Source: an uncultured Acidimicrobiaceae bacterium (lineage in GTDB: Bacteria; Actinomycetota; Acidimicrobiia; Acidimicrobiales; RAAP-2). From it: a stretch of 64,000 nucleotides of DNA. Where the stretch lies: NCBI GenBank assembly GCA_963817875.1, contig CAWFPQ010000009.1, forward strand, positions 55,442 to 119,441, read 5' to 3'. Below the pieces are notes generated by a model. The model searched no databases. It was not told the origin of the DNA and saw nothing but the letters and a program-made list of their open reading frames with translations. Position numbers and translations under genes: made by a program. Every line of letters begins with the position of its first letter. Within the stretch, counting starts at the first letter, position 1. This document shows positions 44,244 to 61,071 of this stretch, in pieces.

Positions 44244-44318
44244 GCGGAAGTGGCGCAGCGGTAGCGCATCACCTTGCCAAGGTGAGGGTCGCGGGTTCGA
44301 ATCCCGTCTTCCGCTCCA
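44244..44318 (+). tRNA. tRNA-Gly (anticodon GCC), CCA encoded
   Basis: Hand-folded as follows.
- Acceptor stem GCGGAAG/CTTCCGC
- D arm GCGC-AGCGGTA-GCGC
- Anticodon arm TCACC-TTGCCAA-GGTGA
- T arm GCGGG-TTCGAAT-CCCGT
- 3' end TCCA. Confidence 0.95.
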
Positions 44319-44445
44319 AACTGGGCAGGTCAGAGGTGGTTTCTATTTTCTCACGTCGCACGTAGCGAATGTCTTCGAAGCGAGAAATTCAGGGCCTCTG
44401 TGTCTTCCGCTCTCGAAGCGGTTGAGCCTGGACGGGGGCGTGTGA

Positions 44446-44817
44446 TCACCCCAGGCCGACATCCAAGAGTGCCGCACGGAGAAGGCCGTTTTCGTTTCCC
44501 CTCGCCATGATCACCTGCGCTCGAAGGACGGTGGCTGCCGCAAGAGCCTCGCGAGAGAGCAGGTTCAATCCGCGTCCGGCTCCATTGAGTTGGCTCGCCA
44601 TTGTCGGCGCTACCTCTCGCCAGTTCAACAATTCGATCCGTTCTGGTAATTGGAGCACGGCACGTAGAACGGACTCCCGGCGAATCGGAGGAAGTGACAT
44701 CAACGGTCTCGACAGTGCCCCGCCCGCTCCGCGGATGGCTGCTTGACACAAGCGCAAATACCAGCAGCCGGTGGTGACGATGCGGTCGTCAGGCCATGCC
44801 GTCTCTCCGCGCAACAA
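44446..44817 (-). CDS. PIN-domain (VapC-like) toxin candidate, start codon problematic
   Basis: It follows an AbrB-type antitoxin gene. The conserved N-terminal strand with Asp (VLIDDQ) lies upstream of the first canonical start (TTG at 44817), between that start and the vapB TAG stop. Confidence 0.5.
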   Translation of the reverse strand: MLRGETAWPDDRIVTTGCWYLRLCQAAIRGAGGALSRPLMSLPPIRRESVLRAVLQLPERIELLNWREVAPTMASQLNGAGRGLNLLSREALAAATVLRAQVIMARGNENGLLRAALLDVGLG

Positions 44818-44868
44818 GTCGGAGAGGGTCTGGTCGTCAATCAGGACAGTCAGAGTGTCGACCTGGCG

Positions 44869-45102
44869 CTACTGGTTGGCGAGCTCGGGATCTCCAAACC
44901 CAGAGCTCGCCGCTTCCCAGTCGGCGTTGCCCAGGACTGCATCGCGCACTTTGCTGAGCCCGCCGGGAACGAGCACGACTGAATCGCCAAGGTCGATCCA
45001 CCCAACGACTCCGCCTTCATCGAGGCCCCACCGGTGCCGCGTCTGGGCGGGCAATGCCATTTGGCCCCGTTCGCTCACCTTGACTTCACCTGTTTGGGTC
45101 AT
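44869..45102 (-). CDS. AbrB/SpoVT-type antitoxin (VapB-like)
   Basis: MTQTGEVKVSERGQMALPAQTRHRWGL is a SpoVT-AbrB looped-hinge-helix signature. It lies immediately upstream of the PIN gene. Confidence 0.7.
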   Translation of the reverse strand: MTQTGEVKVSERGQMALPAQTRHRWGLDEGGVVGWIDLGDSVVLVPGGLSKVRDAVLGNADWEAASSGFGDPELANQ

Positions 45103-45223
45103 GGAAACCTCACAATGCAATTTGGCTAAGTGCATTGTAGCAGGCGGCTGCAGGTTCGGAGTCGAGACGCATGCCCCATTTGAACGGGTCGAAGCCTCCC
45201 AAAAGGCTCGAAGACTCGAAGTC

Positions 45224-45270
45224 TTGACGTAGGTAGTTATGTACCATATAACTGTTACTGTGACAGTAAC
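45224..45270 (+). promoter_or_regulatory. Promoter (TTGACG-17 nt-TATAAC) and 8-bp inverted repeat GTTACTGT-g-ACAGTAAC overlapping the start of the SDR-MarR operon
   Basis: The hexamers are at 45224-45229 and 45247-45252. The predicted transcription start near 45259 coincides with the in-frame GTG at 45260, implying a leaderless mRNA. The palindrome spans 45254-45270. A second palindrome, AAGACT-cga-AGTCTT (45211-45225), overlaps the -35. Confidence 0.45.
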
Positions 45271-45991
45271 TAAAAATCCAACCGAAGTTCCGGCTCAGAG
45301 CGCTGCGGGACGAGTCCTTCTCTTCGGGGCCTCCCGTGGTCTTGGCCTCGCACTGGCCGAGGCGTGGGTCGAGGACGGCTGGCACGTCACTGCCACAGTT
45401 CGCGAGACCGGAAAGACGGCGCTCCACGAGCTGGCCGAGCGGCACCCAGCGCAGGTGGAGATCGAGACGCTCGACGTGACTAGCCAGTTCCAGATCGCCG
45501 CGCTGCGCGACCGCCTGGCCGGCAGGATGTTCGACCTCCTTTTTCATAACGCCGGCACTGCCAACCAGCCGGACGGCACTGTCGCTGAGACCTCGACCGA
45601 CGAGTTCGTCGAGGTGATGGTCACCAACGCGCTCAGCCCGCTGAGAGTCATCGAGACTTTCGAGGACTGTGTTGAGTCGACCGGAACCATCGGCGTCATG
45701 TCATCGGGGCAGGGCAGTGTGGCCAACAACACCAATGGCGGTCACGAGGTCTACCGTGGCAGCAAGGCGGCCCTCAACAGTTACATGCGCAGCTACGACG
45801 CCCGTCACCGCGGCGAGCAACGAACCCTGATCCTCATGGCCCCCGGCTGGGTCAAGACTGACCTGGGCGGACCCGATGCCCGACTTCGCATCGAGGAAAG
45901 CATCCCGGGCGTGGTCAAGGTGATCGACAGCCTCCGGGGCCAGCCCGGACTTCATTACGTCGACTACCTGGGGCAGACGGTCCCGTGGTAG
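45260..45991 (+). CDS. Short-chain dehydrogenase/reductase
   Basis: VLLFGASRGLGLALA (the TGxxxGxG variant), HNAG, and YRGSKAALN. The track start at ATG 45239 lies inside the predicted promoter spacer, so GTG 45260 is preferred. Confidence 0.8.
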   Translation: MTVTKNPTEVPAQSAAGRVLLFGASRGLGLALAEAWVEDGWHVTATVRETGKTALHELAERHPAQVEIETLDVTSQFQIAALRDRLAGRMFDLLFHNAGTANQPDGTVAETSTDEFVEVMVTNALSPLRVIETFEDCVESTGTIGVMSSGQGSVANNTNGGHEVYRGSKAALNSYMRSYDARHRGEQRTLILMAPGWVKTDLGGPDARLRIEESIPGVVKVIDSLRGQPGLHYVDYLGQTVPW

Positions 45992-46455
45992 GTGCCAGGT
46001 CTGGCGCGGTCTCGAAGGCCGTAAAGGTCCCGGCGAGTTCGGCGCAGCAGGCCTGGACCCTTCTGCGCCAGTTCGTCGATGAGCACAGTCGGCATGGCGA
46101 CCTCACAGAATCACTGGGCTTCAGCCTTGGAGCCGGGCGGGGCAAGGTCTTGTTCCAGCTGCGGACTGGACCACTGACGCACCGTCAGCTCGCTGAGCGC
46201 AATCAAACTACTGGCCCTTACATCTCGGTCATCGTCGACAAACTCGAAGAGCACGGGCTTGTCCAACGTGGTCCCCATCCCGACGACGCCCGTCGCAAGC
46301 TCGTCTCTCTCACACCAGGTGGGCTCGAAGCCATTGCCACCGCGGAAGCCATCTTGTATCGCCCGCCAGACGCCATGACCGCACTCTCGGAGAAAGAGCT
46401 GAAGCAACTAATCGACCTGGTGCAGCGCGTCCTCGACGCTGACGATGGGACCTGA
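45985..46455 (+). CDS. MarR family transcriptional regulator
   Basis: Winged-helix region LTHRQLAERNQTTGPYISVIVDKLEEHGLVQRGPHPDDARRKLVSLTPGG. It overlaps the SDR stop by 7 nt, indicating an operon. Confidence 0.85.
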   Translation: MVGARSGAVSKAVKVPASSAQQAWTLLRQFVDEHSRHGDLTESLGFSLGAGRGKVLFQLRTGPLTHRQLAERNQTTGPYISVIVDKLEEHGLVQRGPHPDDARRKLVSLTPGGLEAIATAEAILYRPPDAMTALSEKELKQLIDLVQRVLDADDGT

Positions 46456-46574
46456 GGGTCACGGCGCTCAGGGCGCTCTACTTGAGGGTGGCCGTATAGG
46501 GGCGACGCGGTTAGACGCCTGGTATGCGAGAGGGGCGTCGGAGGGACGCGAGGACCGCCAAATCGCTTCGGAAC

Positions 46575-46765
46575 GTGTAGTAGAGCGCTCCACTACAGCG
46601 GCGAACTGGATGGACGGGCTGGAAACTGGGTGGAGGGAGCCGCACGTCACGGGACGGGCGGGACCCAAACGGACGAAAACCCTCACCTTTGCCAAGGTGA
46701 GGGTCGCGGGTTCGAATCCCGTCTTCCGCTCCAAACTACCAGGTGGGAGGGTGGTTTTCAACCGC
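46575..46765 (+). repeat. att-like module A: arm + tRNA-Gly 3' part (46683-46733, one extra T in the anticodon loop) + tail
   Basis: GTAGTAGAGCGCTCCACTAC, then GATGGACGG-n13-GGTGGAGGG, then GGGACGGGCGGGACCCAAACGGACGAAAACCC. The tRNA-Gly sequence from the anticodon stem to CCA follows, then AACTACCAGGTGGGAGGGTGGTTTTCAACC. Confidence 0.85.
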
Positions 46766-46914
46766 AACGGATACCCGGCTCTGAGGATCTGAGCGGGGAG
46801 CGTTGATGCCAGAGGTCCTTCACAAACAGGGCCCTTCAGATCTGAGCGGGGCGAGCTGACGGAACGCTGCGGTTTGGACGCTTCGGATAAGTGGTCGGAT
46901 AGCGATCCAACCGT

Positions 46915-47562
46915 TCAGGTGGCGTCAACAATGCTGAAGAAGTCGAGAAGAGCGTGCGCCACCTGAACGGGTGCCTCGAGCGATGCATAGTGGCCGACGC
47001 CTTCGAGAGTCACCGATCGGACTGGAGCGGAGCTGACCTGGCTCATCGTTGCGAAGGTGAACTCGCCGCCACCAGCTCCAATCGCCAGCATCGGAATGTT
47101 CAGCTTGTGGCCGGTGACAAGAGTTGCGATCTCGTCGCCTTCGTGGAGCATGGACTGGTAGAGGCCAATCGCTCCGCGCCAGCCGTCGGGACGGGAATAG
47201 GTGCGGACGAACTCGTCGATGTCGGTGTCGGTGATCGCTCCGGGGGTGGCGCTCATGGCCGGAAAGGCGAACTGTCCGAGGAACTCGCGCTCGCGACCGG
47301 CGAGGAGCATCTCGGGGATCCCGGAGGCGGCAAGAACGCCGATGTGCCAAATACCGCCGTGGGTGACGTCCGCCAGCGCCTCAAGGCCGAACCCGGTTAG
47401 GCCCATCTCGATGGCGGTGAAGCTGAGCACATCCTCGGGGTGCGTCGCGGCGAGACGCAAGACAGTCGCCCCGCTGATGTCCTGGCCCGTGAGGTGCACT
47501 GGGCCAACGTTGAGCTCTTCGATCAGGAGGTGCAGGTCTTCGGCGGAGGATGTTTGCGGCAC
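46915..47562 (-). pseudogene. Alpha/beta hydrolase (epoxide hydrolase/dehalogenase-like, Asp nucleophile), N-terminally truncated
   Basis: It has VHLTGQDISGATV (a G-x-D-x-G elbow) and a C-terminal GVGHYASLEAP (catalytic His). It lacks the ~70 N-terminal residues carrying the HG.P oxyanion motif. The next gene starts 28 nt upstream, leaving no room for them. Confidence 0.6.
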
Positions 47563-47589
47563 TTTGAGTTGTGAGCGCTAACATCGCTC

Positions 47590-48912
47590 TTGATATTCGG
47601 GGAGAAATCCATGCTCAAGTCCGTATCGGGATCCCGACAGAAGCTGGGGACTTCGGGAAAGGCCCAGCTGGTCCTGTCTTCGGCACTGTGCGCGCTGGTG
47701 CCGACACTCGCTCTTGGCCCCGCGAATGCTTCGGCGGCTCAGGAACCGGGCGTCACGACGACCTCGATCCACGTGGGTCTGCCGTACCTCGATCTGAGCG
47801 CGCTCAAGGCGGTCGGGCTCAATCTGGACCAAGGCAGCTATCCCGACGCGTTCAACGCCCTCATTCACAATCTGAACGCGCACGGGGGCATCGACGGCCG
47901 GAAGATCGCCCTGTCCGTCGCTTCGGTCAATCCGACTTCGACTGCTTCGTCCGCCTCGGCGTGCACGCAGCTGACCCAGGACGACCACGTCTTTGTCGCC
48001 TTTGGACCCCTCTATCCGCTCTGCTACCAGGAAGCTGGGGTAACGACCATCAATGGAGACATGGACGCGTCGACATCGCCCAGCGTCGCGCCCAACTTCA
48101 CTCTGACTCCGCCGGCTTCGGCCTTCGACCCTCTGCAGATATCGGTCTATACCAAGATGGGGATTTTCAAGAACAAGAAGGTCGGTGTCATTAGTGCATC
48201 GGTGGACAAGGCCGAGGTGCCGATCGTTCTGTCCGCGCTCAAGGCGCACCACATCGACGTGGTGCAGACCGCCGTCGACTCGGCACCCCAGAACGACACC
48301 GCTGCATCGAACCAACAGATCCAAGTGATTGCGCAGCGCTTTAAACAGAGTGGCATCAACGTCGTGGTCGGAGTCGGGACCGGAGCGGTGGGTTGGGAAC
48401 AGGGCCTGAGTGACAACCAGAGCACCTATATCCCCCATCTGGTCGCTACCAATTACTCTGACTTCGCCGGCGCGGTGTCGGCGAAGGGTGGCAACAACCC
48501 CACCTATCTGAAGAACGCCATCACCGCGACCGCGGTTCCGTCTCAGCGGGTCTTCTGGAACGATCCCGCCGTTCAGAAATGCGTGAGCACGATCGAGAAG
48601 GCGTTTCCTTCGACGGTGATCGGGGACCCAATCGGTGCAGCTACCAGCGCACCAACGACTTGGGTCGCCGCGGAGAACACCTGCCAAGATTTCGCGATGT
48701 TCGTCGACATCGCGAAGGCCGCGGGCAAGCACCTCACGGCCCAGAGCTTCAAGGAAGCCGGGTATTCTCTTCGCAACGTGTCGATCCCAGGTATGGGTGC
48801 GCCGGTCTCCTTCGGGCCGAACCGGCCGTATGCAGTCGGACCGGTGTACCTGGTGACGTACGACTCCAACAAGCATCAGATGGTCATTGCGGACAAGGCA
48901 ACGAGCGCATAA
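47590..48912 (+). CDS. ABC transporter substrate-binding protein, branched-chain amino acid (LivJ/Peripla_BP_6) type
   Basis: Signal peptide (LVLSSALCALVPTLALGPANASAAQ), then GVTTTSIHVG...GGIDGRKI...DHVFVAFG, typical of type I periplasmic binding proteins. The start could also be the ATG at 47611. Confidence 0.8.
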   Translation: MIFGEKSMLKSVSGSRQKLGTSGKAQLVLSSALCALVPTLALGPANASAAQEPGVTTTSIHVGLPYLDLSALKAVGLNLDQGSYPDAFNALIHNLNAHGGIDGRKIALSVASVNPTSTASSASACTQLTQDDHVFVAFGPLYPLCYQEAGVTTINGDMDASTSPSVAPNFTLTPPASAFDPLQISVYTKMGIFKNKKVGVISASVDKAEVPIVLSALKAHHIDVVQTAVDSAPQNDTAASNQQIQVIAQRFKQSGINVVVGVGTGAVGWEQGLSDNQSTYIPHLVATNYSDFAGAVSAKGGNNPTYLKNAITATAVPSQRVFWNDPAVQKCVSTIEKAFPSTVIGDPIGAATSAPTTWVAAENTCQDFAMFVDIAKAAGKHLTAQSFKEAGYSLRNVSIPGMGAPVSFGPNRPYAVGPVYLVTYDSNKHQMVIADKATSA

Positions 48913-48997
48913 CGACGCAGCAGCTGTCGTGCGCCCTTGAAACAGAACCGCCTGGCGCTGCCGGGTCGGCGTGGATCGAGCAGACGCAGCCGTCGGA

Positions 48998-49657
48998 TTA
49001 AGGACCGAGAAGGGCAGCGACGACGAAGTCCGCGAGATCGTCGATGAGGGTGTCGGCCGACGAGGTCCACGGTTGGAACTGACTCATGAACGTGACGCTG
49101 CCCAGGACGGTCGGAAGTAGGTGACTCCGTCTGAGCACGCGTTCTGGGGCGTCGCCTGACTCGACGGCTCGTTGAAGGGTGTTGGCGATGATCGCTTCCC
49201 ACTCTCGCTCACGCTTGACGAATCGTTCCTCTGCTCGGGGATTGGCGTCTACTTCCGCGAGGAGCGCGGGAAAAGCCGCACGGGTGGCCGGATCCGAAAG
49301 GTAGGCCATGTTCCGGCGTATGAGCTCGCGGAGATCGGATTTGAGTGAGCCCGTCGGGAAGTGCGCCGAGGGCTCGGCGCTCAGAGGATCGTCGCCACCC
49401 AGGATGGCTGCTGCCGCCATCTCGGCCTTCGTGTCCCAACGCCGCGCAATGGTCCTTACGTGAACCCCGCTGCGCTGGGTCACCTTGTTCGCGCTCAAGG
49501 CCTGATAGCCCTCTTCGGCGAGGAGCTCCCTCACCGCCTGCAGGATGGTCGAGTCGAGTTCGGCGTTGCGCGGCCTCCCTGGATCCCGGTCGATCTGGGT
49601 CTCGTCTGCGGCAGTAGGCACCAGGTCAGCGTACAAGTTCGGCGTATTTAGTGCCAA
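48998..49657 (-). CDS. TetR family transcriptional regulator
   Basis: ILQAVRELLAEEGYQALSANKVTQRSGVHVRTIARRWDTK is the HTH region. Confidence 0.85.
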   Translation of the reverse strand: MALNTPNLYADLVPTAADETQIDRDPGRPRNAELDSTILQAVRELLAEEGYQALSANKVTQRSGVHVRTIARRWDTKAEMAAAAILGGDDPLSAEPSAHFPTGSLKSDLRELIRRNMAYLSDPATRAAFPALLAEVDANPRAEERFVKREREWEAIIANTLQRAVESGDAPERVLRRSHLLPTVLGSVTFMSQFQPWTSSADTLIDDLADFVVAALLGP

Positions 49658-49754
49658 GGGTTTGGCACTAACTCGGCATGTTCGATATGGTTGCGGACGT
49701 CAGGGCGACGCTGTGTTTGCGCTCGTTGGCGTGGTGGGGACGCGAAGGAGGTCC

Positions 49755-50987
49755 ATGACAGACAAGGTGGCGATCATCTCGGTGGACGGGCACGTCAAGC
49801 CGGCACGGCACGTGTATCTCGATTACATCGACCCGGCATTCCGCCAGGAGCTCTCGGCGGACGTGGGGATTCTCGAGGGATCACCCGACGGCTTCGTCCA
49901 CCCGACCCTGGGCGAGCCCTGCCAGTGGGACGCGGCGCGTCGTGTCCGGGATCTCGAATCACAAGGAGTGGTGGCGGAGGTCCTCTTCCCCAACGGACAA
50001 GCCTTCGAAGGAGCCAGCCTCGACCACTCTCCCGACCCCGGACGGTCGCGGGCCTCGAACATGGCGTACAACCGTTGGCTCATCGACTTTTGCTCCGAGG
50101 CGCCGGGACGATTCTGCGGGCTCGCCGCGATCGACTTCGACGACGTCGAGCAAGCCATCGCCGACGTGCACTGGGCGAAGGAGAACGGCCTGGGGGGTGT
50201 GCTCATGCCGCCCCTGCATCCGAACGCAAAGTTCTTCTTCGACCCGGCGCTCGATCCGGTGTGGGCGGCCTGCCAGGAGACCGGCCTCCCGCTCGGTCAA
50301 CACGGTGGTACTGGCTCGCCCAAGTACGAGCCCCAGAGCTTCGCATCGTTCATGGTGCTGGCCACCGAGCATTCCTTCTTCTCAGGTCGCTCCCTCTGGC
50401 AGCTCATTCTCGGCGGCACCTTCGATCGTTTCCCGGAACTGAAGATCGCCTACATCGAGACGGAGCAGTGGTGGCTGGGACCGGTCATGGATCTCCTTGA
50501 CCGACGCGAGCAGATGGGCGACGACTGGACTGACTTCGCGGAGACGCTCCGGCGGGTCAAGCCGTACAAGAACCTGCCGAGTGACTACTGGAGCTCGAAC
50601 TGCTTCATCGGCCTCTCGCCGTTCACCACCGAACAGATCGAACTCGACCGGTTCGGATCGGCGAGTCGCAGCGAGGCGACTGGGTTCGCGATCCGGTGCG
50701 ACAACTCGATGATAGGAGTGGATTACCCGCATCCCGAGACCGTCTACCCCGGGCTGCTCCGCCAGGTGAAGGTGCTCGTGGACCACCCGGGCGTAACGGA
50801 GGATGAGGCCCGGAAGGTCCTGTATGGGAACGCCGCGCAGCTTTTCGGTTTCGACCTGGCGGCGCTCGATGCGGATATCGATCGCGCCGGATTCCGCCTC
50901 GATGACATTCCCGAACCGGAGCAGGACAGGATGCAGCTGACGTCCCTCTTCGAGGTGGCGTCAGTCTCGCGCCTCACTCCCGATTGA
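49755..50987 (+). CDS. Amidohydrolase-2 (ACMSD/metal-dependent hydrolase) family protein
   Basis: ATG preceded by GAAGGAGG. The sequence has IISVDGHV (an HxH-like metal site start), WLIDFCSEAPGRF, GLPLGQHGG and GVDYPHPE. Confidence 0.8.
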   Translation: MTDKVAIISVDGHVKPARHVYLDYIDPAFRQELSADVGILEGSPDGFVHPTLGEPCQWDAARRVRDLESQGVVAEVLFPNGQAFEGASLDHSPDPGRSRASNMAYNRWLIDFCSEAPGRFCGLAAIDFDDVEQAIADVHWAKENGLGGVLMPPLHPNAKFFFDPALDPVWAACQETGLPLGQHGGTGSPKYEPQSFASFMVLATEHSFFSGRSLWQLILGGTFDRFPELKIAYIETEQWWLGPVMDLLDRREQMGDDWTDFAETLRRVKPYKNLPSDYWSSNCFIGLSPFTTEQIELDRFGSASRSEATGFAIRCDNSMIGVDYPHPETVYPGLLRQVKVLVDHPGVTEDEARKVLYGNAAQLFGFDLAALDADIDRAGFRLDDIPEPEQDRMQLTSLFEVASVSRLTPD

Positions 50988-51029
50988 ACCCTGACGGCCG
51001 TCGCGACGTGCGACGAGATCAGGCGCCGT

Positions 51030-51215
51030 TCAGAGTTGTGCCCACACGGTCTTGTTCTTGAGGTAGCCGTCGATGCCCTCCTGGCCGTTCTCGTAGTCCC
51101 ACCGGACTGCTTGAACCCACCGAAGGGTAGCGACCTTCGGGAGGGAGGTGATAGTCGAGCGGTCGGATGAGCTGAACGATGAAGTCGCCGCGTAGTCCGT
51201 CAGATTCTCATCCAC
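51030..51215 (-). pseudogene. Aldehyde dehydrogenase C-terminal remnant (frameshifted)
   Basis: One frame gives PFGGFKQSG and the adjacent frame gives WDYENGQEGIDGYLKNKTVWAQL-stop. Together these form the canonical ALDH C-terminus. Nothing of the first ~400 residues is present. Confidence 0.5.
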
Positions 51216-51224
51216 AGGTCTTGA

Positions 51225-51434
51225 CTATTTCTCGTCGGTAACCAGACCGCCGACGTACATCGATTCAACTTCAGCCTCGTGGGCGCGTGACTCTTCAGCG
51301 GAGAGCTTTAGACCGATCCTCCCATTCGGCATCACGAGAACACGATTGGCGACCATCTCTGCGTAACGCAGATGCTGTTCAACCACTATTACGGCACGTC
51401 CACACTGTGCGTATTCAGAGATAGCGCCGAACAA
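51225..51434 (-). pseudogene. ABC transporter ATPase C-terminal remnant (LivF/LivG-like)
   Basis: RAVIVVEQHLRYAEMVANRVLVMPNGRIGLKLSAEE...MYVGG matches the H-loop to C-terminus part of branched-chain amino-acid ATPases. Walker A, the signature motif and Walker B are absent. Confidence 0.5.
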
Positions 51435-51438
51435 ACGA

Positions 51439-51600
51439 TCACAGACCGGCGATGGCCAGCCCGTCGAGGTCGTTGTAGGCGTTCATCACGGTGACCAGGC
51501 CAGCCTCCTGAATGGCGGCGCGGAAGGGCACTGCGTCGACGTCGCGGAGCTGACGCTGCGGTGTACCAACGTCAACGGTCGACGGCTGCGAGCCCCGCTG
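51439..51600 (-). pseudogene. Possible glycoside hydrolase family 3 fragment
   Basis: PFRAAIQEAGLVTVMNAYNDLDGLAIAG resembles the GH3 F..AI.AG...VM.AYN..NG segment. The fragment is short and the call is weak. Confidence 0.3.
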
Positions 51601-51606
51601 GGCCGG

Positions 51607-52025: not shown

Positions 52026-52990
52026 CTAGAGGGTTTCAGCAGCGTGGCGAGCGACCTTGGCATAGAGATCTTCGAGGAGTAACCGAGTATCGAGTCGCCG
52101 AAAGATCCGAAGTGGCGGTCCTAGGTGCATAGCGTCGTAGCGACCAGAGTCGAGCATCCGATATCGAGGTCGTTCGACCCACTCGCACGACGAAGGGCTT
52201 GGGTCGAAGCTGGTGAGGAGCGCTGAAAGCAGGACTAGGGGAGAGTCTCCCAGTACGAATGTCTCGCCAATCATCCAGCCGAGCGCTTGCATTTCGTGGG
52301 CAACCACGTCGACTGACTTGAAGAGGTGCTCACCCAACGAGCCTCGCGGCTCCATGCGTGCCAGAAGCTCGCTGCGAGAGACGAGAACCTGCTTATAGGC
52401 ATCTCGCGGGACCTGCCAAAGATCGAGAGCCGAGACATTGAACACGAATTGCGCGGCCACGATGTCGATACTGGTGTTTGTACTCCACAGCCAAGGCGCT
52501 TGGGGTTGGTTCAGCCAAGTCTTCGTATTCACGTCCACCGATCCATACAAGCGTCAGATGATCCGCGATACGCGGCTCCATGAGCCACGCTGAGGCAATG
52601 TTCGTGAGAGATCCACCGCAGACGACGATCAGCTGAGAGTCGGTGTCGTCGCGGATGGCTTCTTCGATGATCGCTTCGGCCGCCGGCGTCTTTCGCGGTT
52701 TGGTGATGCTGGACAACACCTCATTTGATCCGGCAATGACGGGCACGTCGTTCCGTCCGGCGAGAGCTGCCACTTTGCGTGCCGCAGCCGCAGAATCGTA
52801 CGCACAGGTCGGCGACCACGACGGGTCATAGGCCGCCACCTGGCCACCAATGACGAAACGGATATCTGTGCTCAGGCTGAGTAGATGGTGTGCGAGCTGC
52901 ACCAATCCGTCGGGATCGCCGAGTAGTCGTTGTCGGAGATAACGCGCACTCGAGGGGCGATCAGTCCGCTACACCGCGCAGGATCCATCA
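52026..52990 (-). pseudogene. Nucleoside hydrolase-like protein, at least two frameshifts
   Basis: The pieces are MMDPA...RVRVISDNDYS | GDPDGLVQLAHHLL...LIVVCGGSLTNIASAW...LTLVWIGG | ...STNTSIDIVAAQFVFN.... They lie in three different frames (track ORFs 52393..52905 and 52026..52550, plus an unlisted N-terminal piece). Confidence 0.55.
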
Positions 52991-53009
52991 TCGGCCTCCT
53001 TTCCTTCGC

Positions 53010-53615
53010 TCACCCCTCAGGCGCCTGTGCCTCGAGCGTGAGTGGTCTGAGGTACGAGAGGTCCCGACGGTCACGTGTTCCGCGAGGGTAGCCCTGGTCT
53101 TGGAACGGTTCGCTCTGTAGCAATGACGCATCGGCCGTGAACATGAGCTCGACCGTCGAGCGCCTTACCGCGATCTTCCAAATACCGTCGCGTCGCTCCA
53201 ATCGGTCGATGTAACGGCCGCTGATCACGCGTGCGGTGACGCCATCATGGTTGAGGAGGCACACGAGCACGTAACTCTCGCAATGGGCGGTATCGTGGTC
53301 GATGTCGCACATGTGAGTAGTGATGTTGTGGGTGTGGGCCTGTGATCCGGCGGCGTGGACGGGATTGATCCACCCCGCATACTTGGGTCCGGAGTTGACG
53401 GCCTTCCCGTGTTCATCGACCCCGTCGGGATGGTAGGCCCTCGTGAGGAGGTCCGCGTCGTGCCGGTCGTGCCCACGGCTGTGCTCCGAGATGCAGTCGA
53501 GGATTGCGCTGCGATCCATCAGATATCGGACGTCGCGGCGAAGCTGATCGAGTTCGTCGTCGTTGCTCACGATGGTCGGACCTTTCCCCAGTGAAGTGAC
53601 TGTCCGCGCTGTCAT
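53010..53615 (-). CDS. SnoaL-like/NTF2-fold family protein
   Basis: LRRDVRYLMDRSAILDCISEHSRGHDRHDADLLTRAYHPDGVDEHG...GRYIDRLERRDGIWKIAVR is the typical SnoaL_4 pattern. Confidence 0.65.
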   Translation of the reverse strand: MTARTVTSLGKGPTIVSNDDELDQLRRDVRYLMDRSAILDCISEHSRGHDRHDADLLTRAYHPDGVDEHGKAVNSGPKYAGWINPVHAAGSQAHTHNITTHMCDIDHDTAHCESYVLVCLLNHDGVTARVISGRYIDRLERRDGIWKIAVRRSTVELMFTADASLLQSEPFQDQGYPRGTRDRRDLSYLRPLTLEAQAPEG

Positions 53616-54034
53616 CGGTCGAGAATCTGGCCGTAGATATGCTCGGCGTGAAGCTCGACCCCCATCCGGTGGCTGGCCACCATGTCCTCGCCGAAGCCGT
53701 CGCGCTCCGACGCCGCTCCCAGTGCGACGTGGATTTCGAACAGTTTCTCGACGGCGTCATCATCAGGTTCCAGGGCCACGGCCAACGAAGCGGGGCCAGC
53801 CACGACCGCGAAGTTGAAGAAGTCTTGACCAGGCACATGGAGCGACGCCCGGGGGTCACGCAAAAGATTGCGGCCCTTGATGCGATGGGTCGTCGTCGAG
53901 AACCGGATCCGCTGGGTTGAAGGGTGTACCAGGTAGAAGATGTTCGACAGCTGTGGGACGCCGTCTTCTCCGATGGTGGCGAGGATTCCTTTGCGCTCGT
54001 CGGCGATGATCTCCCAGAGTCGCTCTGTCGTCAT
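53612..54034 (-). CDS. Pyridoxamine 5'-phosphate oxidase family (F420/FMN-binding split-barrel) protein
   Basis: From MTTERLWEIIADERKGILATIGEDGVPQLSNIFY...K.RNLLRDPRASLHV. Confidence 0.75.
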   Translation of the reverse strand: MTTERLWEIIADERKGILATIGEDGVPQLSNIFYLVHPSTQRIRFSTTTHRIKGRNLLRDPRASLHVPGQDFFNFAVVAGPASLAVALEPDDDAVEKLFEIHVALGAASERDGFGEDMVASHRMGVELHAEHIYGQILDR

Positions 54035-54137
54035 ATTGGGCTGGTCCTCCAGGCGGATCAATCGGGGACAGGCGCGGTCAGTGATCCAGACGCTCCGGCC
54101 CGCTGCTCGTGATGGTTTGGCTTTCCAGTTTGTCTCG

Positions 54138-54755
54138 TTACGTCTTTCGTTGCTTTTTGGACTTCCCCGAAGGTGGTTCCGCGACGTCAAGGAACTTCTC
54201 GATGGCGTTCAACGCTTCAGCATGCGTCGTCGAGATACCGACGCCCTCCTCGAGGCGGATCAACCTCGGAGTCCCCGTCAAGAAGAAGAGCAATGCCTCG
54301 GGGGTGAGCCGACCGATTTCGATCTCCTCCTCCCCAAACGCGGCATAGAGTGCCTCCAGCTGGGTGCGCCGGACCCGCTCGGTCACCTCGGCGATCTCCG
54401 ATCGGACTGAGGGTCGGTGATTGCCGAGCGCGAGGAATTCGGTGGTGAGAGCCGAATTCGACTCTTCTTGGCTGTATGACCAGAGCACGCGTAGCGGTTC
54501 GCCCTCGCTGGCGTATAGCGCCTCGGTCAGCCGTTCGACATTCTGTCCCGCCCGCCTTCGAATAACCGCGAGGAAGAAATCGTCATGGTTTGGGAAGTAG
54601 TACTGGACCGAGCCTGCGGTCATACCTGCGGCCGCAGCCACGGCGCGATAGGTCACGCTCGCATACCCCGACTTGACCATCAGCCGCTCCACGCAGTCGA
54701 GTAAGAGATCCCATGTCTTAGATGTCGCCGCGCCATCTCGTCGGGGCGAAGTCAT
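54138..54755 (-). CDS. TetR family transcriptional regulator
   Basis: From MTSPRRDG. The HTH region is LLDCVERLMVKSGYASVTYRAVAAAAGMTAGSVQYYFPNHDDF. Confidence 0.85.
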   Translation of the reverse strand: MTSPRRDGAATSKTWDLLLDCVERLMVKSGYASVTYRAVAAAAGMTAGSVQYYFPNHDDFFLAVIRRRAGQNVERLTEALYASEGEPLRVLWSYSQEESNSALTTEFLALGNHRPSVRSEIAEVTERVRRTQLEALYAAFGEEEIEIGRLTPEALLFFLTGTPRLIRLEEGVGISTTHAEALNAIEKFLDVAEPPSGKSKKQRKT

Positions 54756-55198
54756 GTGCACCTCATTGTTCTGAAGGCGTGATTGAGGAAGTTGCTTTGT
54801 CGTGCGAGCCGGCATTTCTTCCGGCGCTCGCGTCCTTACAAGGACTCTGACGATGCGCCTCCGGCTGGCCAAGCCGCCAAAGACACATGGTTTGCGCTGT
54901 GGCGGCGACCTTCGTGGGGGGCTTGTCTCGGTGGGTGAGCGCTGTCGGAGCCCACGTTCTTGGGCGCACGCGGCTGGTGGCATCTCCAGCGCTCGCCGAC
55001 GGTCCCGGATTACTGGCCATCCCCATCTCCCATCACGCCCTTTACGTGGACCCCTTACACCTGTATGGTATACCTACCTTACATATGTAAGGCCGACGGC
55101 GATCTGGCTGATCCGTCAGGGAACTGAAGTTGGGTGACGACGCCGATGTCCCATTCTCGATAGGGGTGCGGTGGTGGCGTTCTTGAACGATTGAGGGG

Positions 55199-57367
55199 GT
55201 GGCTGTGAGGAACGAACACAAACGGCTGGAAGTCAAGGCTGGCCAAGGGCGTCACAAGAGACTGTTCAGCGATCAGCGCCGCCGATTGTCCAGAATCGCC
55301 ATGCTCGTCGTGGGGGCGGTGATGGTCGCAACATTGGCTCCGGCCGTGACCTCCTCGGTCTCAGCGACGACGCCGGCTCCCACGCTTCCCACTTGCCAGC
55401 CGTCAATGCCAGGTGGCCCTGTGTTCATCACGGCCGACTGCGTCGATCCGGTCTTGAACCAGCCCTACGTTGACATCGAACAGCCAGGGACAATGACCGA
55501 CCCGACCACGGGCGTGACGGTGAACTTCACTTACGTCCACGGCGGGTTCACGGGAACCACCACCAAGTTCGCGTTCTACTTTCCGTCGGCAAATCAGTAC
55601 GAGGGGCGATTCTTCGAGACCACCTACCCGACACTCGGTCAGGAAAACGCGGCAACGGACTGTCCATCGGTGGGAACCTCGGTCTGCTCTGTCGTGTTCG
55701 CCATCTCGAATGGCGCCTATGTCGTCTCGAGTAACAACGCAGGCGGCGTACCGGCGGGCGGGGCAGTCGCCCCCTACCGGGCTAACGCGGCATCGGCCAT
55801 GTATTCCCGGGTCGTGGCCCGCCAGATCTACGGCAACTCCATCCCCAGTCCCCGGGGTTACCTCTACGGTGCCAGCGGTGGCGCCTACCAGACGGTCGGG
55901 TCCATGGAGAATACGAGTGGGGTGTGGCAGGGGGCGGTACCTATGGTCTTCGGTGTCCCGAACGCCATCCCGAGCTTCATGACGGCCGAACTACTTGCTC
56001 TCAGGGTGCTCGGACCCGTGCTGCCACAGATCGCCGACGCCGTGGCACCCGGCGGGAGCGGCAACCCCTACGCCGGACTCAGCCCCGATCAGCAGGCGGT
56101 GCTCCACGAGGTCACGGACCTCGGGTTCCCGCTCCGGGGCTGGTGGCAATACGCCACCCTCAACGGCGGCGGGTTCTTAGCCGTGGAGGGTGCTGTCCGA
56201 GCGATCGATCCCACCTACGTCACAGATTTCTGGACCCAGCCGGGTTACGAGGGCAGCCAGCCGGCGGTCCAGGCTGCTCGAATCCAGTACGCCACGACAG
56301 TCATCAGCCTCTCCGGCACGAGCGGACTTGTCCTTGCCAACGTGCCTGCAGGGGACTTGATCAATGCGGATCTTGACATCGCAAGCGGTTCTCTTGCCGG
56401 TCAGACCATCCCGATCGAGTCCGTGAGTGGCAACACCGTCGAGCTCGCTGGGAGCAACTCGGGGATCACACCGGGCACGAACGTGGAGCTCGACAACTCT
56501 TGGTTGATCGCAATGCAGTACTACCAGCGTCACCAGGTGCCCACACCTGACGAGTACGGGTGGAACCAGTACCGCGCCCCAAACGGTCAGCCGCTCGAGC
56601 CGCAGCGACCCCTCCTGATCGGACCGCTCTTGACGGAGAGCACCGCCGGCTCGATCCCAGACGGGCACTTCTACGGGAAGATGATCATGCTGGGGTCGAC
56701 CATGGACGTCCAGGCGTACCCGTGGAGCGAGGACTGGTACCGCAACCAGGCCGAGGGCGCATTGGGAGCGAGCTTCCGGAGCAGCTATCGAATCTGGTAC
56801 ATGGATAACGCCGATCATGACCCGGAGGGTCCGGCAGCGACTACGGCTGATGACGCCAGCGATCACATCGTCGCCTACTCGGGTGAGGCGGAGCAGGCTC
56901 TGCTCGACCTCGATGCGTGGGTCGCGCATGGAGTTCAACCCCCGGCCAGCACGAACTACCGGATCGATTCGAACGACCAGGTTCAGTTGCCGCCGATCGC
57001 CGTCGCACGCAACGGCGTTCAGCCGGTGGTCGGCCTCTTTGCCGACGCGAGAGGAAGTCTCCCCTCCTCGAACCGGATCGACGTGAAGGCCGGCCAACCT
57101 GTCAGCTTCCTAACTGTCGCGCAGGCTCCACTGGGCGGCGGCTGCATCGTGAAGGCAGAGTTCGATCCGCAGGGCTCGGGGACCTTCCCCGACAGCATGC
57201 CAATACACCACGTAGGCCCAGTTGAGATACTCGGTGATTCATTTACCTACTCAACTCCTGGTACCTACTTCCCAGTCGTGCGGATCACCTCGAATGCCAA
57301 CTGTGATCCGAACGCGGTGTACGCGCTGATCCAAAATCTCGCCAGCGTGCGCGTGGTCGTCCACTAG
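55199..57367 (+). CDS. Large secreted protein, possible alpha/beta-hydrolase (GASGG elbow)
   Basis: Signal/anchor segment IAMLVVGAVMVATLAPAVTSSVSA, with non-repetitive sequence throughout. YGASGGAYQ is a G-x-S-x-G candidate. I cannot assign a family. Confidence 0.65.
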   Translation: MAVRNEHKRLEVKAGQGRHKRLFSDQRRRLSRIAMLVVGAVMVATLAPAVTSSVSATTPAPTLPTCQPSMPGGPVFITADCVDPVLNQPYVDIEQPGTMTDPTTGVTVNFTYVHGGFTGTTTKFAFYFPSANQYEGRFFETTYPTLGQENAATDCPSVGTSVCSVVFAISNGAYVVSSNNAGGVPAGGAVAPYRANAASAMYSRVVARQIYGNSIPSPRGYLYGASGGAYQTVGSMENTSGVWQGAVPMVFGVPNAIPSFMTAELLALRVLGPVLPQIADAVAPGGSGNPYAGLSPDQQAVLHEVTDLGFPLRGWWQYATLNGGGFLAVEGAVRAIDPTYVTDFWTQPGYEGSQPAVQAARIQYATTVISLSGTSGLVLANVPAGDLINADLDIASGSLAGQTIPIESVSGNTVELAGSNSGITPGTNVELDNSWLIAMQYYQRHQVPTPDEYGWNQYRAPNGQPLEPQRPLLIGPLLTESTAGSIPDGHFYGKMIMLGSTMDVQAYPWSEDWYRNQAEGALGASFRSSYRIWYMDNADHDPEGPAATTADDASDHIVAYSGEAEQALLDLDAWVAHGVQPPASTNYRIDSNDQVQLPPIAVARNGVQPVVGLFADARGSLPSSNRIDVKAGQPVSFLTVAQAPLGGGCIVKAEFDPQGSGTFPDSMPIHHVGPVEILGDSFTYSTPGTYFPVVRITSNANCDPNAVYALIQNLASVRVVVH

Positions 57368-57734
57368 GACGCGGAGCGCTCATTTCGCTGCTGGATGTCG
57401 CGAGCCAAAGACCTTCGGATGAAGTCGCGTGGCCCAAAAGCCGGCGTGCTTCTTCGGAGTTCTTTGCTTGCCTGCGAGAGATTCATTCGCCCTCTCTGTC
57501 GAGGCGCCGACTGGGGTGAAGACTCTTGGTTTCAGCTTGGCCTCAGGTCGGGGGCATCGATTGAGCGAAGTGGAAGGTCGCCGGTTTCGTATCTGGTTCA
57601 CTCGTCTCGCCGAAGACGAAACAGATTCACTCCGGGACGGATCGATGCCTTCGATCGCGCCAGCCCCAGAGAGCCCAACGGAAAAGCGCGGGAGCCCGAC
57701 AACGGTCGCAGTGCGACTGGGACGGCTCTCAGCG

Positions 57735-57920
57735 ATAGTAGAGCGCTCTACCACAGGGGCGGACCCAATGCAGGGGGTTCAAACTGGGTGGACGGAACCG
57801 CACTTCACGGGATCCGCCAGACCCAGACAGACGAAAACCCTCGCCTTGCCAAGGTCAGGGTCGCGGGTTCGAATCCCGTCTCCGGCTCCTACAGCAGTAC
57901 CAGATAGAGGCGGTTCAACC
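57735..57920 (+). repeat. att-like module C (most diverged): arm + tRNA-Gly 3' part with 5 mismatches (57841-57890) + tail
   Basis: ATAGTAGAGCGCTCTACCAC...AAACTGGGTGGACGGAACCGCACTTCACGGGA...GACGAAAACCCTCGCCTTGCCAAGGTCAGGGTCGCGGGTTCGAATCCCGTCTCCGGCTCCT, followed by ACAGCAGTACCAGATAGAGGCGGTTCAACC. Confidence 0.85.
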
Positions 57921-58038
57921 ACCCACGAACTGTCCAGTCGCTGGGCAGAGTGCCGCACCCACGAGTTCGCCGCGCACGCGATCTCAATCCCATGGTCGAG
58001 GCTATGCCTGAGAATCGACGGCAATCTCGGCAACTTCC

Positions 58039-59295
58039 TCAGGGTATCGGGAAGAGACCATTTACGAAGTCGTTGCGAAACTTGAAGGTCGGGTCGTACT
58101 CAACCATCAAGCGTTCGAAATCGGGAGCCCGCTCGTAGGAGGTGATGACCTCACGCGGGGACATCGTCGTGAGTTTGCCCCAGTGAGGCCGTGGATCGAG
58201 CGGCAACAACTGCTCTTCAATGGCCGCGAGGGCAGACAACGCCGCCGATTCATTGGCAGTCCAAGTGAAATGGAATGTGACGGAGTCCCGACCGTAGGCG
58301 GGGCTCAACCAGAGGTCATCCGAACAGACCGTACGCATCTCGCTGATGAGCAATTCCGGCGCAATGAGGCTACCGATCTCGCGGAGCGCGGAGATGGCCT
58401 CTCGTGCAACGTGACGTGGCAGGAAGACCTCTGATTGCAACTCATTTCCCGCTCCAGGACTCGGTTTGGGGCGGAAGTGTGCCAACCGCTCATGCCAAGG
58501 GCCGACCACCCCCAACTGCTCCGTGCATAGGTCCGGCGACATGCCAGGCACCGGATGGACGGTGTGTTGTGCGTGCCTGCCGGCGGACCAGGTCAACGCG
58601 CGCTGATCAACTCGACGCTTGAGCCATACGCTGGCCTCACCGCTACACCAATCGGTGAACGCGCTCACGCTATAGCCCGCGCTGAACAAGTCATCCAGTC
58701 CGTCCTCTATCTCATCGAGGGGAACGCCGAGGTGAACCTGTTGCGACATCTCGTACGCTGGCTCGATATCCAAGGTCAGATGGGTCACGATGCCAAGAGC
58801 ACCGAGAGCGACCACCGAGCCACGAAAATTGTCTCGATCGAGATCTCGCCTCAACTCGAGCAGGTCCCCGTCCGCGAGGACCAGCTTCATTGCGGCGACG
58901 GAGTCGGCGAGAACGCGTTGAGCATCGCCAGAACCGTGGGTGCCAGTTGCGCAGGCCCCGGCGATCGAGATGTCGGGGATCGAGGCCATATTCGATAACG
59001 CGAAACCTGCTCGAGACAACGCTTCGGCCAGATCGGTGTAACTCATGCCGGAAGCCACTGTCACCGTGGAATTAGTCGGATCGATGGTGAGCGTTTTGGG
59101 CAGATTGTCCAAAAGCACCGAATCGCCGGTGGTGTCAGCAATTCCGCTGAAGGAGTGGCCACGGCCAAGAGCTCGCATTTGTTTTCCGCCATGGACAATC
59201 CGGCGAAGGCTGTCGACCGATTCGGGCTTGTGTACTTGCGCGGCACCAAAGATGACGTTCCCAGCCCAGTTAGTGGCGGATACGTCGTGGCCCAT
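58039..59295 (-). CDS. FAD-binding oxidoreductase, D-arabinono-1,4-lactone oxidase/alditol oxidase family
   Basis: NWAGNV...P.S...L...V.......RALGRGHSFS (FAD_binding_4) and the C-terminal PHWGK motif of the ALO domain. Confidence 0.85.
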   Translation of the reverse strand: MGHDVSATNWAGNVIFGAAQVHKPESVDSLRRIVHGGKQMRALGRGHSFSGIADTTGDSVLLDNLPKTLTIDPTNSTVTVASGMSYTDLAEALSRAGFALSNMASIPDISIAGACATGTHGSGDAQRVLADSVAAMKLVLADGDLLELRRDLDRDNFRGSVVALGALGIVTHLTLDIEPAYEMSQQVHLGVPLDEIEDGLDDLFSAGYSVSAFTDWCSGEASVWLKRRVDQRALTWSAGRHAQHTVHPVPGMSPDLCTEQLGVVGPWHERLAHFRPKPSPGAGNELQSEVFLPRHVAREAISALREIGSLIAPELLISEMRTVCSDDLWLSPAYGRDSVTFHFTWTANESAALSALAAIEEQLLPLDPRPHWGKLTTMSPREVITSYERAPDFERLMVEYDPTFKFRNDFVNGLFPIP

Positions 59296-59369
59296 TTGCC
59301 TGCCAGGATCACTGTAAGAACCGATACCTGCCGAAGTTAGCTCGCCGTTTCACGTATTCGGCACATGCT

Positions 59370-59470
59370 GCTCAGCCGTCCCTCGCCTCCCTTGACGGCT
59401 GCTTGGTTCCAAAGTAGGTCGAACGCAACGCAGCCATGGCGGCGATCATCGCCACTGCACAGCCTTCTCA
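59370..59470 (-). pseudogene. C-terminal fragment of a TetR gene paralogous to 61072..61737
   Basis: The minus-strand frame gives AVAMIAAMAALRSTYFGTKQPS, compared with STVAMIAGMAALRSTYFGTKQPS in the intact gene. DNA at 59397-59453 is near-identical to 61142-61198. Confidence 0.5.
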
Positions 59471-59622
59471 GCTGCCTGTCGGACCTCGAGAATCCAGCGG
59501 CTTCTTTGAACACATGGCCCAGCAATCAGGCTCCAGGCGGCGCTCGAGAGCGGGATCGGCCACCGCTGCCACCGCGAAATTTCTAGGCTCCTCACTGCGG
59601 CCGTGTTTCGGGAGCTGCGCTG

Positions 59623-59810
59623 ATAGTAGAGCGCTCGACTACAGCGGCGGACTCGATGGACGGTCTGGAAACTGGGTGGACGCACCGCACTTCGGGGACC
59701 TGCTGGACCTAGAAGCACGAAAACCCTCACCATGCCAAGGTGAGGGTCATGGGTTCGAATCCCGTCTTCCGCTCCATTGCAGCAGGTCAGAGGCGGTGTC
59801 GCCACCGTCG
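59623..59810 (+). repeat. att-like module D: arm + tRNA-Gly 3' part with 3 mismatches (59727-59776) + tail
   Basis: ATAGTAGAGCGCTCGACTAC...GATGGACGG-n13-GGTGGACGC...CACGAAAACCCTCACCATGCCAAGGTGAGGGTCATGGGTTCGAATCCCGTCTTCCGCTCCA, followed by TTGCAGCAGGTCAGAGGCGGTGTCGCCACC. Confidence 0.85.
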
Positions 59811-59899
59811 CCTGCGGGGGAGTGAGGGCTCATCGGACTTCAGCGGGACAGCCGTTCGACGTCACCGCTGGACGTTGCCGCGCAGTCTCAGGGGGTCAC

Positions 59900-61003: not shown

Positions 61004-61071
61004 GGGCTCCCCCCGGGACTTTTCGCTGCTGAAGTTAGCTGGCCTTTTCAGGATCTCGGCACATTGGGAGA

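Follow-up and report, generated by a model that had tools for sequence, protein, structure and literature searches.

A probable integration hotspot at tRNA-Gly(GCC) with an integrase-less array of accessory blocks in an uncultured Acidimicrobiaceae bacterium

The tRNA-Gly gene, its displaced 3' copies and the attachment module

We analyzed a 64,000-nt stretch of contig CAWFPQ010000009.1 (assembly GCA_963817875.1; hereafter, the window) from an uncultured Acidimicrobiaceae bacterium, in which a tRNA-Gly(GCC) gene is followed by an array of accessory-gene blocks separated by partial copies of that gene. Both ARAGORN and Rfam (71.1 bits vs. a gathering score of 29) identified the intact gene at 44244..44318 on the plus strand. 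The final 50 nt of the gene (44269-44318), which run from the anticodon stem through CCA, constitute a core that recurs in four further copies, all in direct orientation:

46683-46733, plus strand: core copy 1, with one inserted T (alignment)
51713-51762, plus strand: core copy 2, exact
57841-57890, plus strand: core copy 3, with 5 mismatches (alignment)
59727-59776, plus strand: core copy 4, with 3 mismatches

The expected number of chance matches to the 50-nt core was 0.00 (100 shuffles), and the start-to-start distances between consecutive cores were 2415, 5029, 6128, and 1886 nt. The window has a sixth tRNA-derived piece at 44401-44412, where 12 nt of the tRNA 3' end remain. On the 5' side of the anticodon stem, the four copies have neither a D arm nor an acceptor strand, their place being taken by a different, shared sequence described below. 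The G+C content was 0.59-0.65 between 44 kb and the window end vs. 0.67-0.74 at 27-44 kb, and the low-G+C DNA extended beyond 59810 up to the window end. An earlier note on this DNA, made from its letters alone, had reported four direct copies of the tRNA 3' 50 nt that were not tRNA genes and that delimited lower-GC blocks of approximately 2.4, 5.0, 6.1, and 1.8 kb. Exact matching, alignment, and shuffling bore out the copies, the replaced D arm and acceptor strand bore out their status, and the spacings together with windowed G+C bore out the blocks. The gene at 44244..44318 is the regenerated target gene, on the attL side of the array.

Each displaced copy belongs to a repeat unit of ~190 nt (hereafter, the module), composed of an upstream arm of ~105 nt, the tRNA half, and a trailer of ~30 nt. 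The arm is common to the four window copies and is absent 5' of the real tRNA. A trailer of the same type (type 1) follows all five cores in the window, and was also found behind the tRNA of a related locus with an empty site (L035) and behind the attR of a related occupied locus (L148). The features are as follows:

44319..44350, plus strand: type-1 trailer after the tRNA gene, consensus CAGGTCAGAGGCGGTTTTTCAAC (alignments)
46572..46766, plus strand: module c1, with palindrome from 46578, tRNA half at 46683-46733, and type-1 trailer (nhmmer E = 2.8e-61)
51603..51797, plus strand: module c2, with perfect palindrome TAGTAGAGCGCTCTACTA at 51608-51625, exact half at 51713-51762, and type-1 trailer
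51640-51647 and 51660-51667, plus strand: GTGGACGG direct repeats of module c2
57731..57927, plus strand: module c3, with palindrome from 57736, half at 57841-57890, and degraded type-1 trailer
59618..59811, plus strand: module c4, with palindrome from 59624, half at 59727-59776, and type-1 trailer

Within the arm are an 18-bp palindrome and, spaced by 20 bp, two direct repeats of GTGGACGG. Alignment of 61 copies showed three sequence blocks with at least 90% conservation, separated by variable spacers of near-constant length. The first is the palindrome TAGTAGAGCGCTCTACTAC; the second is GGAAACTGGGTGGACGGAA, whose GTGGACGG joins an earlier GTGGACGG to give the direct repeats; and the third is GACGAAAACC. 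The modules were 80-94% identical to one another with an invariant core, and core identity started at the anticodon stem (TCACC) and extended to CCA both in the window and in 180 modules. As a pattern of conserved blocks and spacers, the arm would fit protein-binding sites in double-stranded DNA, not a folded RNA, with putative roles for the palindrome and the repeats.

The conservation of the module could instead reflect a duplicated gene for a structured, tRNA-like small RNA, with the intervening DNA being incidental. The arm blocks are conserved at this level across species, one copy (51684-51762) was called a 79-nt tRNA-Gly by ARAGORN, and folding of the alignment under relaxed parameters paired GGGUGGA of the arm with the acceptor 3' strand. 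However, the ARAGORN call represents a miscalled fragment scoring 26.9 bits in Rfam, under the threshold of 29; such miscalls of tRNA fragments are already known (PMC9897764), and no Rfam family matched beyond this sub-threshold tRNA hit. RNAalifold gave no consensus structure, predicted stability did not exceed that of shuffled sequences (mean z-score of -0.14 for the arm and +0.42 for the variable part), and no covarying pair had Watson-Crick support. Moreover, integrase-bearing elements end on the right in the arm, which the empty site described below lacks. An RNA gene is therefore a highly improbable explanation of the module.

Two further variations of the module were observed. In five loci (L002, L018, L027, L036, and L065), the final 12-16 nt of the tRNA (GTCTTCCGCTCCA) were repeated in direct orientation 5-25 nt past the main core; these short copies may be deletion scars or the product of a second integrase type using the junction of T-stem and acceptor. 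In the window, a module's variable spacer at 46640-46680 was ~80% identical, with indels, to that of locus L012, vs. 97-99% overall, a pattern suggestive of either a local hotspot of mutation or gene conversion between modules.

Distribution of the module and content of the blocks

A scan of species-representative genomes with an arm pattern (TAGTAGAGCGCTC, a gap, and AAACTGGG) matched 50 stretches, 48 of which were labelled as Acidimicrobiaceae/Acidimicrobiales metagenome-assembled genomes (MAGs), mostly from a Danish soil survey; the remaining two, from unrelated phyla, were rejected as chance matches. A second pattern gave 93 further loci in metagenomes. The census set of 140 core-bearing loci, drawn from the genome scan, the metagenome scan, and five integrase-context loci, contained 215 cores, nearly all labelled Acidimicrobiaceae or Acidimicrobiales, and 180 of these cores had the arm. 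Core orientation was never mixed within any of the 140 loci. The 75 core-to-core spacings had a median of 2550 nt, with 25 of them shorter than 2 kb and some units shorter than 1 kb, and the longest arrays comprised at least six module copies on one contig.

Since the cores were always located at tRNA-Gly across loci and the module copies without a recognisable tRNA half were truncated or decayed, the module is strictly tied to tRNA-Gly and is not a dispersed repeat. This agreed with the linkage to tRNA-Gly that the earlier note had proposed to follow in related genomes: it held over all 140 loci, and a recombinase adjoined some of the copies. Three scans of viral contigs, and blastn of the arm against phage and plasmid collections, gave no match to the module.

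The census also bears on the possibility that the repeats arose during assembly, as an artefact of a metagenome-assembled genome. The relatives are likewise MAGs and contigs break at the repeat, with L148 and L150 both starting in the 3' part of the tRNA. However, the four window copies were only 62-89% identical to one another over 103 nt and had unique flanks, and the same architecture was found in 140 independently assembled loci, some on chromosomes labelled complete. We consider an artefact barely credible.

The DNA between the modules of the window consists of blocks with one to six open reading frames (ORFs); both strands are used, and TetR or MarR regulators are present. Based on Pfam annotation, their content is as follows:

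44319..46571: block 1 (~2.3 kb), with small ORFs lacking a Pfam match, a short-chain dehydrogenase/reductase (SDR), and MarR
45239-45991, plus strand: SDR, block 1
45985-46455, plus strand: MarR regulator, block 1
46767..51602: block 2 (~4.8 kb), with five Pfam-annotated ORFs
46915-47562, minus strand: alpha/beta-hydrolase fragment, block 2
47590-48912, plus strand: solute-binding protein, block 2
48998-49657, minus strand: TetR, block 2
49545-50987, plus strand: amidohydrolase, block 2
51439-51675, minus strand: GH3 fragment, block 2
51798..57730: block 3 (~5.9 kb), with four Pfam-annotated ORFs and a 722-aa protein
52393-52905, minus strand: nucleoside-hydrolase fragment, block 3
53010-53615, minus strand: SnoaL-like protein, block 3
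53612-54190, minus strand: PNPOx-like protein, block 3
54138-54983, minus strand: TetR, block 3
55199-57367, plus strand: 722-aa protein without a Pfam match, block 3
57928..59617: block 4 (~1.7 kb), with a single annotated ORF
58039-59295, minus strand: FAD-binding/ALO-type oxidase, block 4
59812..64000: probable fifth block, older and cut by the window end (G+C of 0.63-0.66)
59900-61003, minus strand: DAP-dehydrogenase-like protein, fifth block
61072-61737, minus strand: TetR, fifth block
within 61921-63993, plus strand: cytochrome P450, fifth block

The truncated hydrolase, GH3, and nucleoside-hydrolase ORFs point to decay of the cargo. The small ORFs at 44351-45232, which the earlier note had read as a vapBC-like pair, gave no Pfam hit, and that assignment was not confirmed. 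The TetR-P450 segment at 61082-62728 was 74% identical to DNA right behind the tRNA in L035 and right behind the attR module in L148, where the counterpart belongs to a ~4.4-kb block ending in another module. The array therefore probably continues past the window, and the DNA after module c4 is very likely a fifth block cut by the window end; from the example of L035 and L148, a further module is predicted about 1-2 kb past position 64000.

Among 294 ORFs from 48 loci subjected to all-versus-all clustering, no gene family recurred beside the module in more than six loci; the top families were SDRs, P450s, binding proteins, and regulators. A recurrent cargo pair was located directly 5' of the module in L112 (601-2192), L121 (605-2217), and L130 (1058-2536), consisting of a small HTH_17-type DNA-binding protein and a 275-aa protein with the Fic/Doc-type motif HALPDGNKR, and is probably a toxin-antitoxin system. 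The weak HTH_17 hits in these loci were considered as an excisionase and rejected, being the partner of a Doc/Fic-type toxin and thus cargo. DDE transposases of insertion sequences were found inside some arrays (L046, 3962-7205; L039; L050; and L148, 9954-11334), and in L148 an insertion sequence has split a module after ~75 nt.

Elsewhere in the window, a second stretch of lower G+C content (22000-26000; 0.61-0.63 vs. ~0.70 around it) had no adjoining tRNA fragment. ARAGORN called a 92-nt 'tRNA-Ala(ggc)' at 31906-31997 on the minus strand, which is not tRNA-like, has ends that are unrepeated in the window, and is probably a false positive. The segments 26640-27350 and 34920-35730 are internally repetitive and match each other's relatives, namely the repeat region of a SpoIID-domain protein (L149 and L152) and a stretch of an array block in L048 (3300-3900).

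Integrases of related elements and the empty site

No recombinase was found in the window by Pfam annotation of the main ORFs, by phmmer with four reference integrases, or by an integrase-family hidden Markov model (HMM) applied to six-frame fragments of at least 30 aa, in agreement with the earlier note, which had recognised no integrase in the four blocks. Across the first 48 loci and the window, motif regular expressions for tyrosine and serine recombinases gave nothing credible, and the best phmmer hit to the integrases of lambda, L5, P4, and phiC31 had an E-value of 0.4. A tyrosine recombinase gene, truncated at its 5' end, was found directly behind the module in the metagenome locus L114. 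Its homologues (P0001-P0120) are proteins of ~385 aa with Phage_int_SAM_3 and Phage_integrase domains, many of them labelled Acidimicrobiales. The integrase-family HMM, searched against 1.02 Mb of loci plus the window, detected five full-length genes and one 5'-truncated gene, and nothing in the window. Four integrase-bearing elements at tRNA-Gly were delimited:

L149: integrase 110-220 nt behind tRNA-Gly on the same strand; right end a module; element of ~9 kb
L151: integrase in the same position as in L149; right end a module; element of ~6.6 kb
L152: integrase in the same position as in L149; right end a T-arm-to-3' part of the tRNA (14655-14718) without the arm
L148: contig beginning in the tRNA 3' end, followed by the integrase; right end a module; element of ~5.3 kb

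In L149, L151, and L152, the full-length integrase is the first gene past tRNA-Gly. These loci share core genes of the window (AMP-binding, RNase_T, dUTPase, and WS/DGAT) at 70-79% nucleotide identity, and, among the three, only L149 and L151 share its methyltransferase neighbour. Three tandem GCCCATCAC repeats lie between the core and the integrase and would represent a typical arm-type binding array, and the attR arm of the integrase-bearing elements is the same ~105-nt arm as that of the window modules. With full-length integrases at the same locus in several relatives, the supply of the enzyme in this lineage is real. The recombinase was recoverable from relatives by searching with the attachment-site arm instead of proteins. 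The L152 integrase was 91% identical to that of L114. Two overlapping tyrosine recombinase ORFs upstream of a tRNA half in L100 (79-2405) belong to a different family, are not core-adjacent, and were judged unrelated.

The listed cargo of the integrase-bearing relatives was metabolic or regulatory, with no conjugation or mobilization genes seen, and the Pfam-annotated ORFs of these relatives and of the window included no Rep or FtsK/TraB-type domain.

The comparison of L035 with L148 provided direct evidence of insertion, although for a related element and not for the window's own blocks. Positions 901-5499 of L035 and 5453-10050 of L148 were 99.3% identical over 4.6 kb, and the homology begins at the anticodon stem. 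This shared DNA (block X) is located behind the intact tRNA-Gly in L035 and behind the right-end module of the integrase element in L148, so that the two loci differ by the presence or absence of one 5.3-kb integrase element and are an empty and occupied site pair. It follows that the arm was imported by the element, that new elements insert between the tRNA and the existing array, and that the type-1 trailer was the sequence behind the tRNA before that insertion. Both MAGs are species representatives despite the 99.3% identity at the locus; the two genomes are either more closely related than their labelling implies or have recently exchanged the block.

Stages of integrase loss were found in related arrays. 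Frameshifted or truncated integrase remnants lie right behind modules in L036, L055/L106/L116, L109, L149, and L150, and L017 has a C-terminal integrase fragment ~3 kb upstream of its module. In block 1 of the window, one possible trace was located:

44401..44440, plus strand: scar, with the 12-nt tRNA 3' remnant TGTCTTCCGCTC followed by TCGAAGCGG

The sequence TCGAAGCGG resembles the start of the integrase-proximal (type-2) arm, as in CTTCCGCTCTCGAAA of L149 and L151, and the scar is also kept in the L012 copy of block 1. From this resemblance, the scar would mark a deleted junction and a lost integrase.

The earlier note had also raised, more speculatively, an integron-like cassette array using a long tRNA-derived recombination site. 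In such a platform, a fixed recombinase beside the tRNA would capture promoterless cassettes and the modules would act as attC-like folded sites. The direct arrays of small units (median 2.5 kb, some below 1 kb), the variable accessory cargo at a single locus, and the absence of a recombinase from most units are as an integron would predict. However, the upstream neighbour of the tRNA is a methyltransferase, conserved in L024, L027, L035, and L048, and the integrase, where present, lies inside the mobile unit between core and arm and has an ordinary SAM_3 plus Phage_integrase architecture. The blocks contain several genes, encoded on both strands, along with TetR/MarR regulators of their own. 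Likewise, the arm is conserved in sequence and not in fold (the mean z-score of -0.14 given above), with a single column pair exceeding a mutual information of 0.5 and forming a standard pair in just 48% of sequences. An integron is accordingly very unlikely here.

Origin and movement of the integrase-less array

Taken together, these data favour the interpretation, to which we assign a probability of about 0.85, that the locus is a tRNA-Gly(GCC) integration hotspot at which serial site-specific integration and decay produced an integrase-less array resembling cis-mobilizable elements (CIMEs). In this model, a family of small integrative elements (~5-9 kb where intact) would use tRNA-Gly as its chromosomal attachment site. 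An intact element would comprise, in order, a short arm with three GCCCATCAC direct repeats, an integrase of ~385 aa transcribed away from the tRNA, cargo, the ~105-nt arm, and the tRNA copy. Recombination within the shared 50 nt, with a crossover probably in the anticodon loop as judged from where identity begins, would regenerate the tRNA on the left and leave arm and tRNA half as attR on the right. Repeated insertion would stack elements head to tail, and loss of integrases by frameshift and deletion would leave att-flanked blocks without integrase. The earlier note had offered accreted, decayed elements moved in trans as one explanation. Its accretion part was strengthened by the orthologous integrase, the attR arm, the L035/L148 pair, and the pseudogenes; its trans part is plausible, given the horizontal movement of integrase-less blocks described below, and is inferred only. 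That note had further regarded the missing integrase as unusual, which was overstated, as integrase loss is the defining state of a CIME (PMC5704250).

Several observations weigh against this interpretation. The 64-kb window contains neither an integrase nor a recognisable fragment of one, so that the enzyme of the array is inferred from relatives, and the type-2-like scar occurs in block 1 alone, blocks 2-4 being without a trace of integrase. Among 74 cores with a type-1 trailer, none had an integrase behind it, whereas 8 of 17 cores with a type-2 arm did; the integrase-bearing elements have a different left arm, and random decay of such elements should leave the type-2 arm, which is not what the trailers show. 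The L152 element has an integrase and an attR without the ~105-nt arm. The 25 of 75 spacings below 2 kb leave no room for an integrase plus much cargo, and such small blocks must have lost the integrase completely or have arisen without one. Finally, the integrase-less blocks of the window lack the GCCCATCAC arm repeats, which were not enriched there (17 matches vs. 24 expected by chance), and the integrase may therefore no longer act on these blocks.

The integrase-less blocks showed horizontal movement. Block 1 matched DNA of L012 at 97-99% identity. The match extended from the T loop as far as the acceptor 3' strand, both of its ends fell inside cores, and the neighbours were unlike on either side. 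Its SDR-MarR pair and module also occur in L040 and L064/L123 (83-85% identical), always module-ended. In block 3, 52961-53784 was 88% identical to L024, where it lies just behind a module; for the core flank, the identity to L024 was 81%. A 2.4-kb integrase-less block, together with both of its modules, was 95% identical between L027 and L048, vs. 80% for the tRNA flanks, which implies that the block moved after the two lineages had diverged. In 80 pairs of homologous blocks, about half of the left and right neighbours that could be assessed were different. The comparison of relatives envisaged in the earlier note gave presence and absence in the L035/L148 pair and reshuffled neighbours in homologous blocks. 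These block comparisons, together with the 74 type-1 trailers never followed by an integrase, suggest that the integrase-less blocks are more than passive decay.

On present sequence comparisons, the movement of the blocks would be explained equally well by an integrase supplied in trans, as in the CIME model (PMC5704250), and by homologous recombination. We give somewhat less than an even chance to the blocks still being moved by a trans-supplied integrase, as opposed to homologous recombination or no movement. It is possible, though clearly less probable than the main interpretation, that the integrase acted only in the past and that RecA-dependent recombination between the ~190-nt modules now drives gain, loss, and exchange of blocks. 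The modules would then serve as portable homology, with direct repeats recombining to delete the DNA between them and double crossovers replacing blocks by DNA that the cell has taken up. The 80-94% identity of the modules and their invariant core, the joint transfer of the L027/L048 block with both modules, the absence of an integrase from the window, and the divergent patch within an otherwise 97-99% identical module, which hints at gene conversion, are in line with this; the breakpoints of shared blocks inside cores or modules are also in line, though predicted by both mechanisms. However, homologous recombination leaves the first arrival of the element's arm at each junction unexplained, for which site-specific integration is needed (L035 vs. 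L148), and several relatives have full-length integrases at this locus. Both mechanisms may operate side by side.

Tentatively, and with no better odds than the RecA-driven exchange, the blocks may instead be a distinct, active class of gene cassettes with a type-1 left end and a right end of arm plus tRNA half, which the integrases of a minority of sister elements would excise as circles and reinsert at tRNA-Gly or at any array junction. This proposal is based on the 74 integrase-less type-1 left ends, the median spacing of 2.5 kb, the reshuffled neighbours, and the L027/L048 block.

The array, understood as serially integrated and decayed elements, can be placed among known systems. A tRNA gene plus a displaced fragment marks the ends of genomic islands, and anticodon-centred sites are common among them (PMC4383910); the ssrA-linked islands of Dehalococcoides are tandem tyrosine-integrase islands (PMC3146451). 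As in the tandem islands of Islander/TIGER, the target gene is intact and direct copies of its 3' part behind it mark the ends, with identity starting from the anticodon arm as in the anticodon-centred class (PMC4383910). The relatives' integrase as first gene by the regenerated tRNA, the lower G+C content, and the occupied/empty pair are further features of tRNA islands. In contrast to Islander islands, the window units have no integrase and are small (1.7-5.9 kb). Islander keeps tandem arrays only where each unit has an integrase, with four arrays of three or more among 3919 islands (PMC4383910), and arrays of the window type would therefore be filtered out.

CIMEs and their accretion have been defined for ICESt1/ICESt3 of Streptococcus thermophilus and for pathogenicity islands of Streptomyces (PMC5704250). 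Judged from its sequence organization, the array has the structure of accreted CIMEs, with core-bounded blocks carrying an attR arm and lacking integration and transfer genes. The units lie in tandem at one target between attL/attR-type sites, integrase pseudogenes represent decay intermediates in related arrays, and integrase-less units show horizontal movement, all as in CIMEs. Unlike CIMEs, the integrase-bearing relatives have metabolic or regulatory cargo and no visible conjugation or mobilization genes, the arrays are longer (at least six module copies on one contig) with smaller units, and many units share a left-end trailer that is never integrase-associated. The elements also differ from actinomycete integrative and conjugative elements (AICEs), as neither the window nor the integrase-bearing relatives have replication or FtsK-like transfer genes in their Pfam lists.

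The likeness to integron cassette arrays is one of outcome only: a single site gathers small, recombinase-less accessory units between repeated sites. The recombination site is not a folded attC; it is of the attP type, ~190 nt long, has a core derived from the tRNA, and is conserved in sequence. The integrase is borne by some units and not fixed beside the array, and the units contain several genes, encoded on both strands, and regulators of their own. The pdif modules of Acinetobacter plasmids are also units bounded by recombination sites, in their case XerC/XerD sites, and are moved by host recombinases; they resemble the present array in being recombinase-less, in carrying accessory genes and toxin-antitoxin pairs, and in occurring next to differing neighbours. 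In contrast to pdif sites, the sites described here are tRNA-derived, ~190 nt long, all direct, and chromosomal, and the enzyme is an element-borne integrase instead of XerCD.

Stacking of islands at tRNA genes and accretion of CIMEs are already known; new are this element family and its module. An odd-looking integrase-less array has an ordinary cause. What distinguishes it is the length and conservation of the ~190-nt attachment module, the dominance of small integrase-less units, and the spread over an uncultured family. It belongs to a previously undescribed element family of a poorly studied soil lineage. Island finders that demand an integrase in each unit would miss such arrays, and their share of the flexible genome is probably undercounted. 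If exchange of the units in trans is borne out, the system would amount to a natural platform for cassettes with a long, defined site and a single integrase, of potential use for genome engineering in actinobacteria. For the organisms themselves, a single tRNA-Gly locus serves as a major reservoir of accessory genes, including dehydrogenases, P450s, binding proteins, regulators, and toxin-antitoxin pairs; if the cassette proposal is true, Acidimicrobiaceae would have an integron-like exchange of cassettes that relies on an ordinary tRNA-targeting tyrosine integrase together with an attP-type site of ~190 nt.

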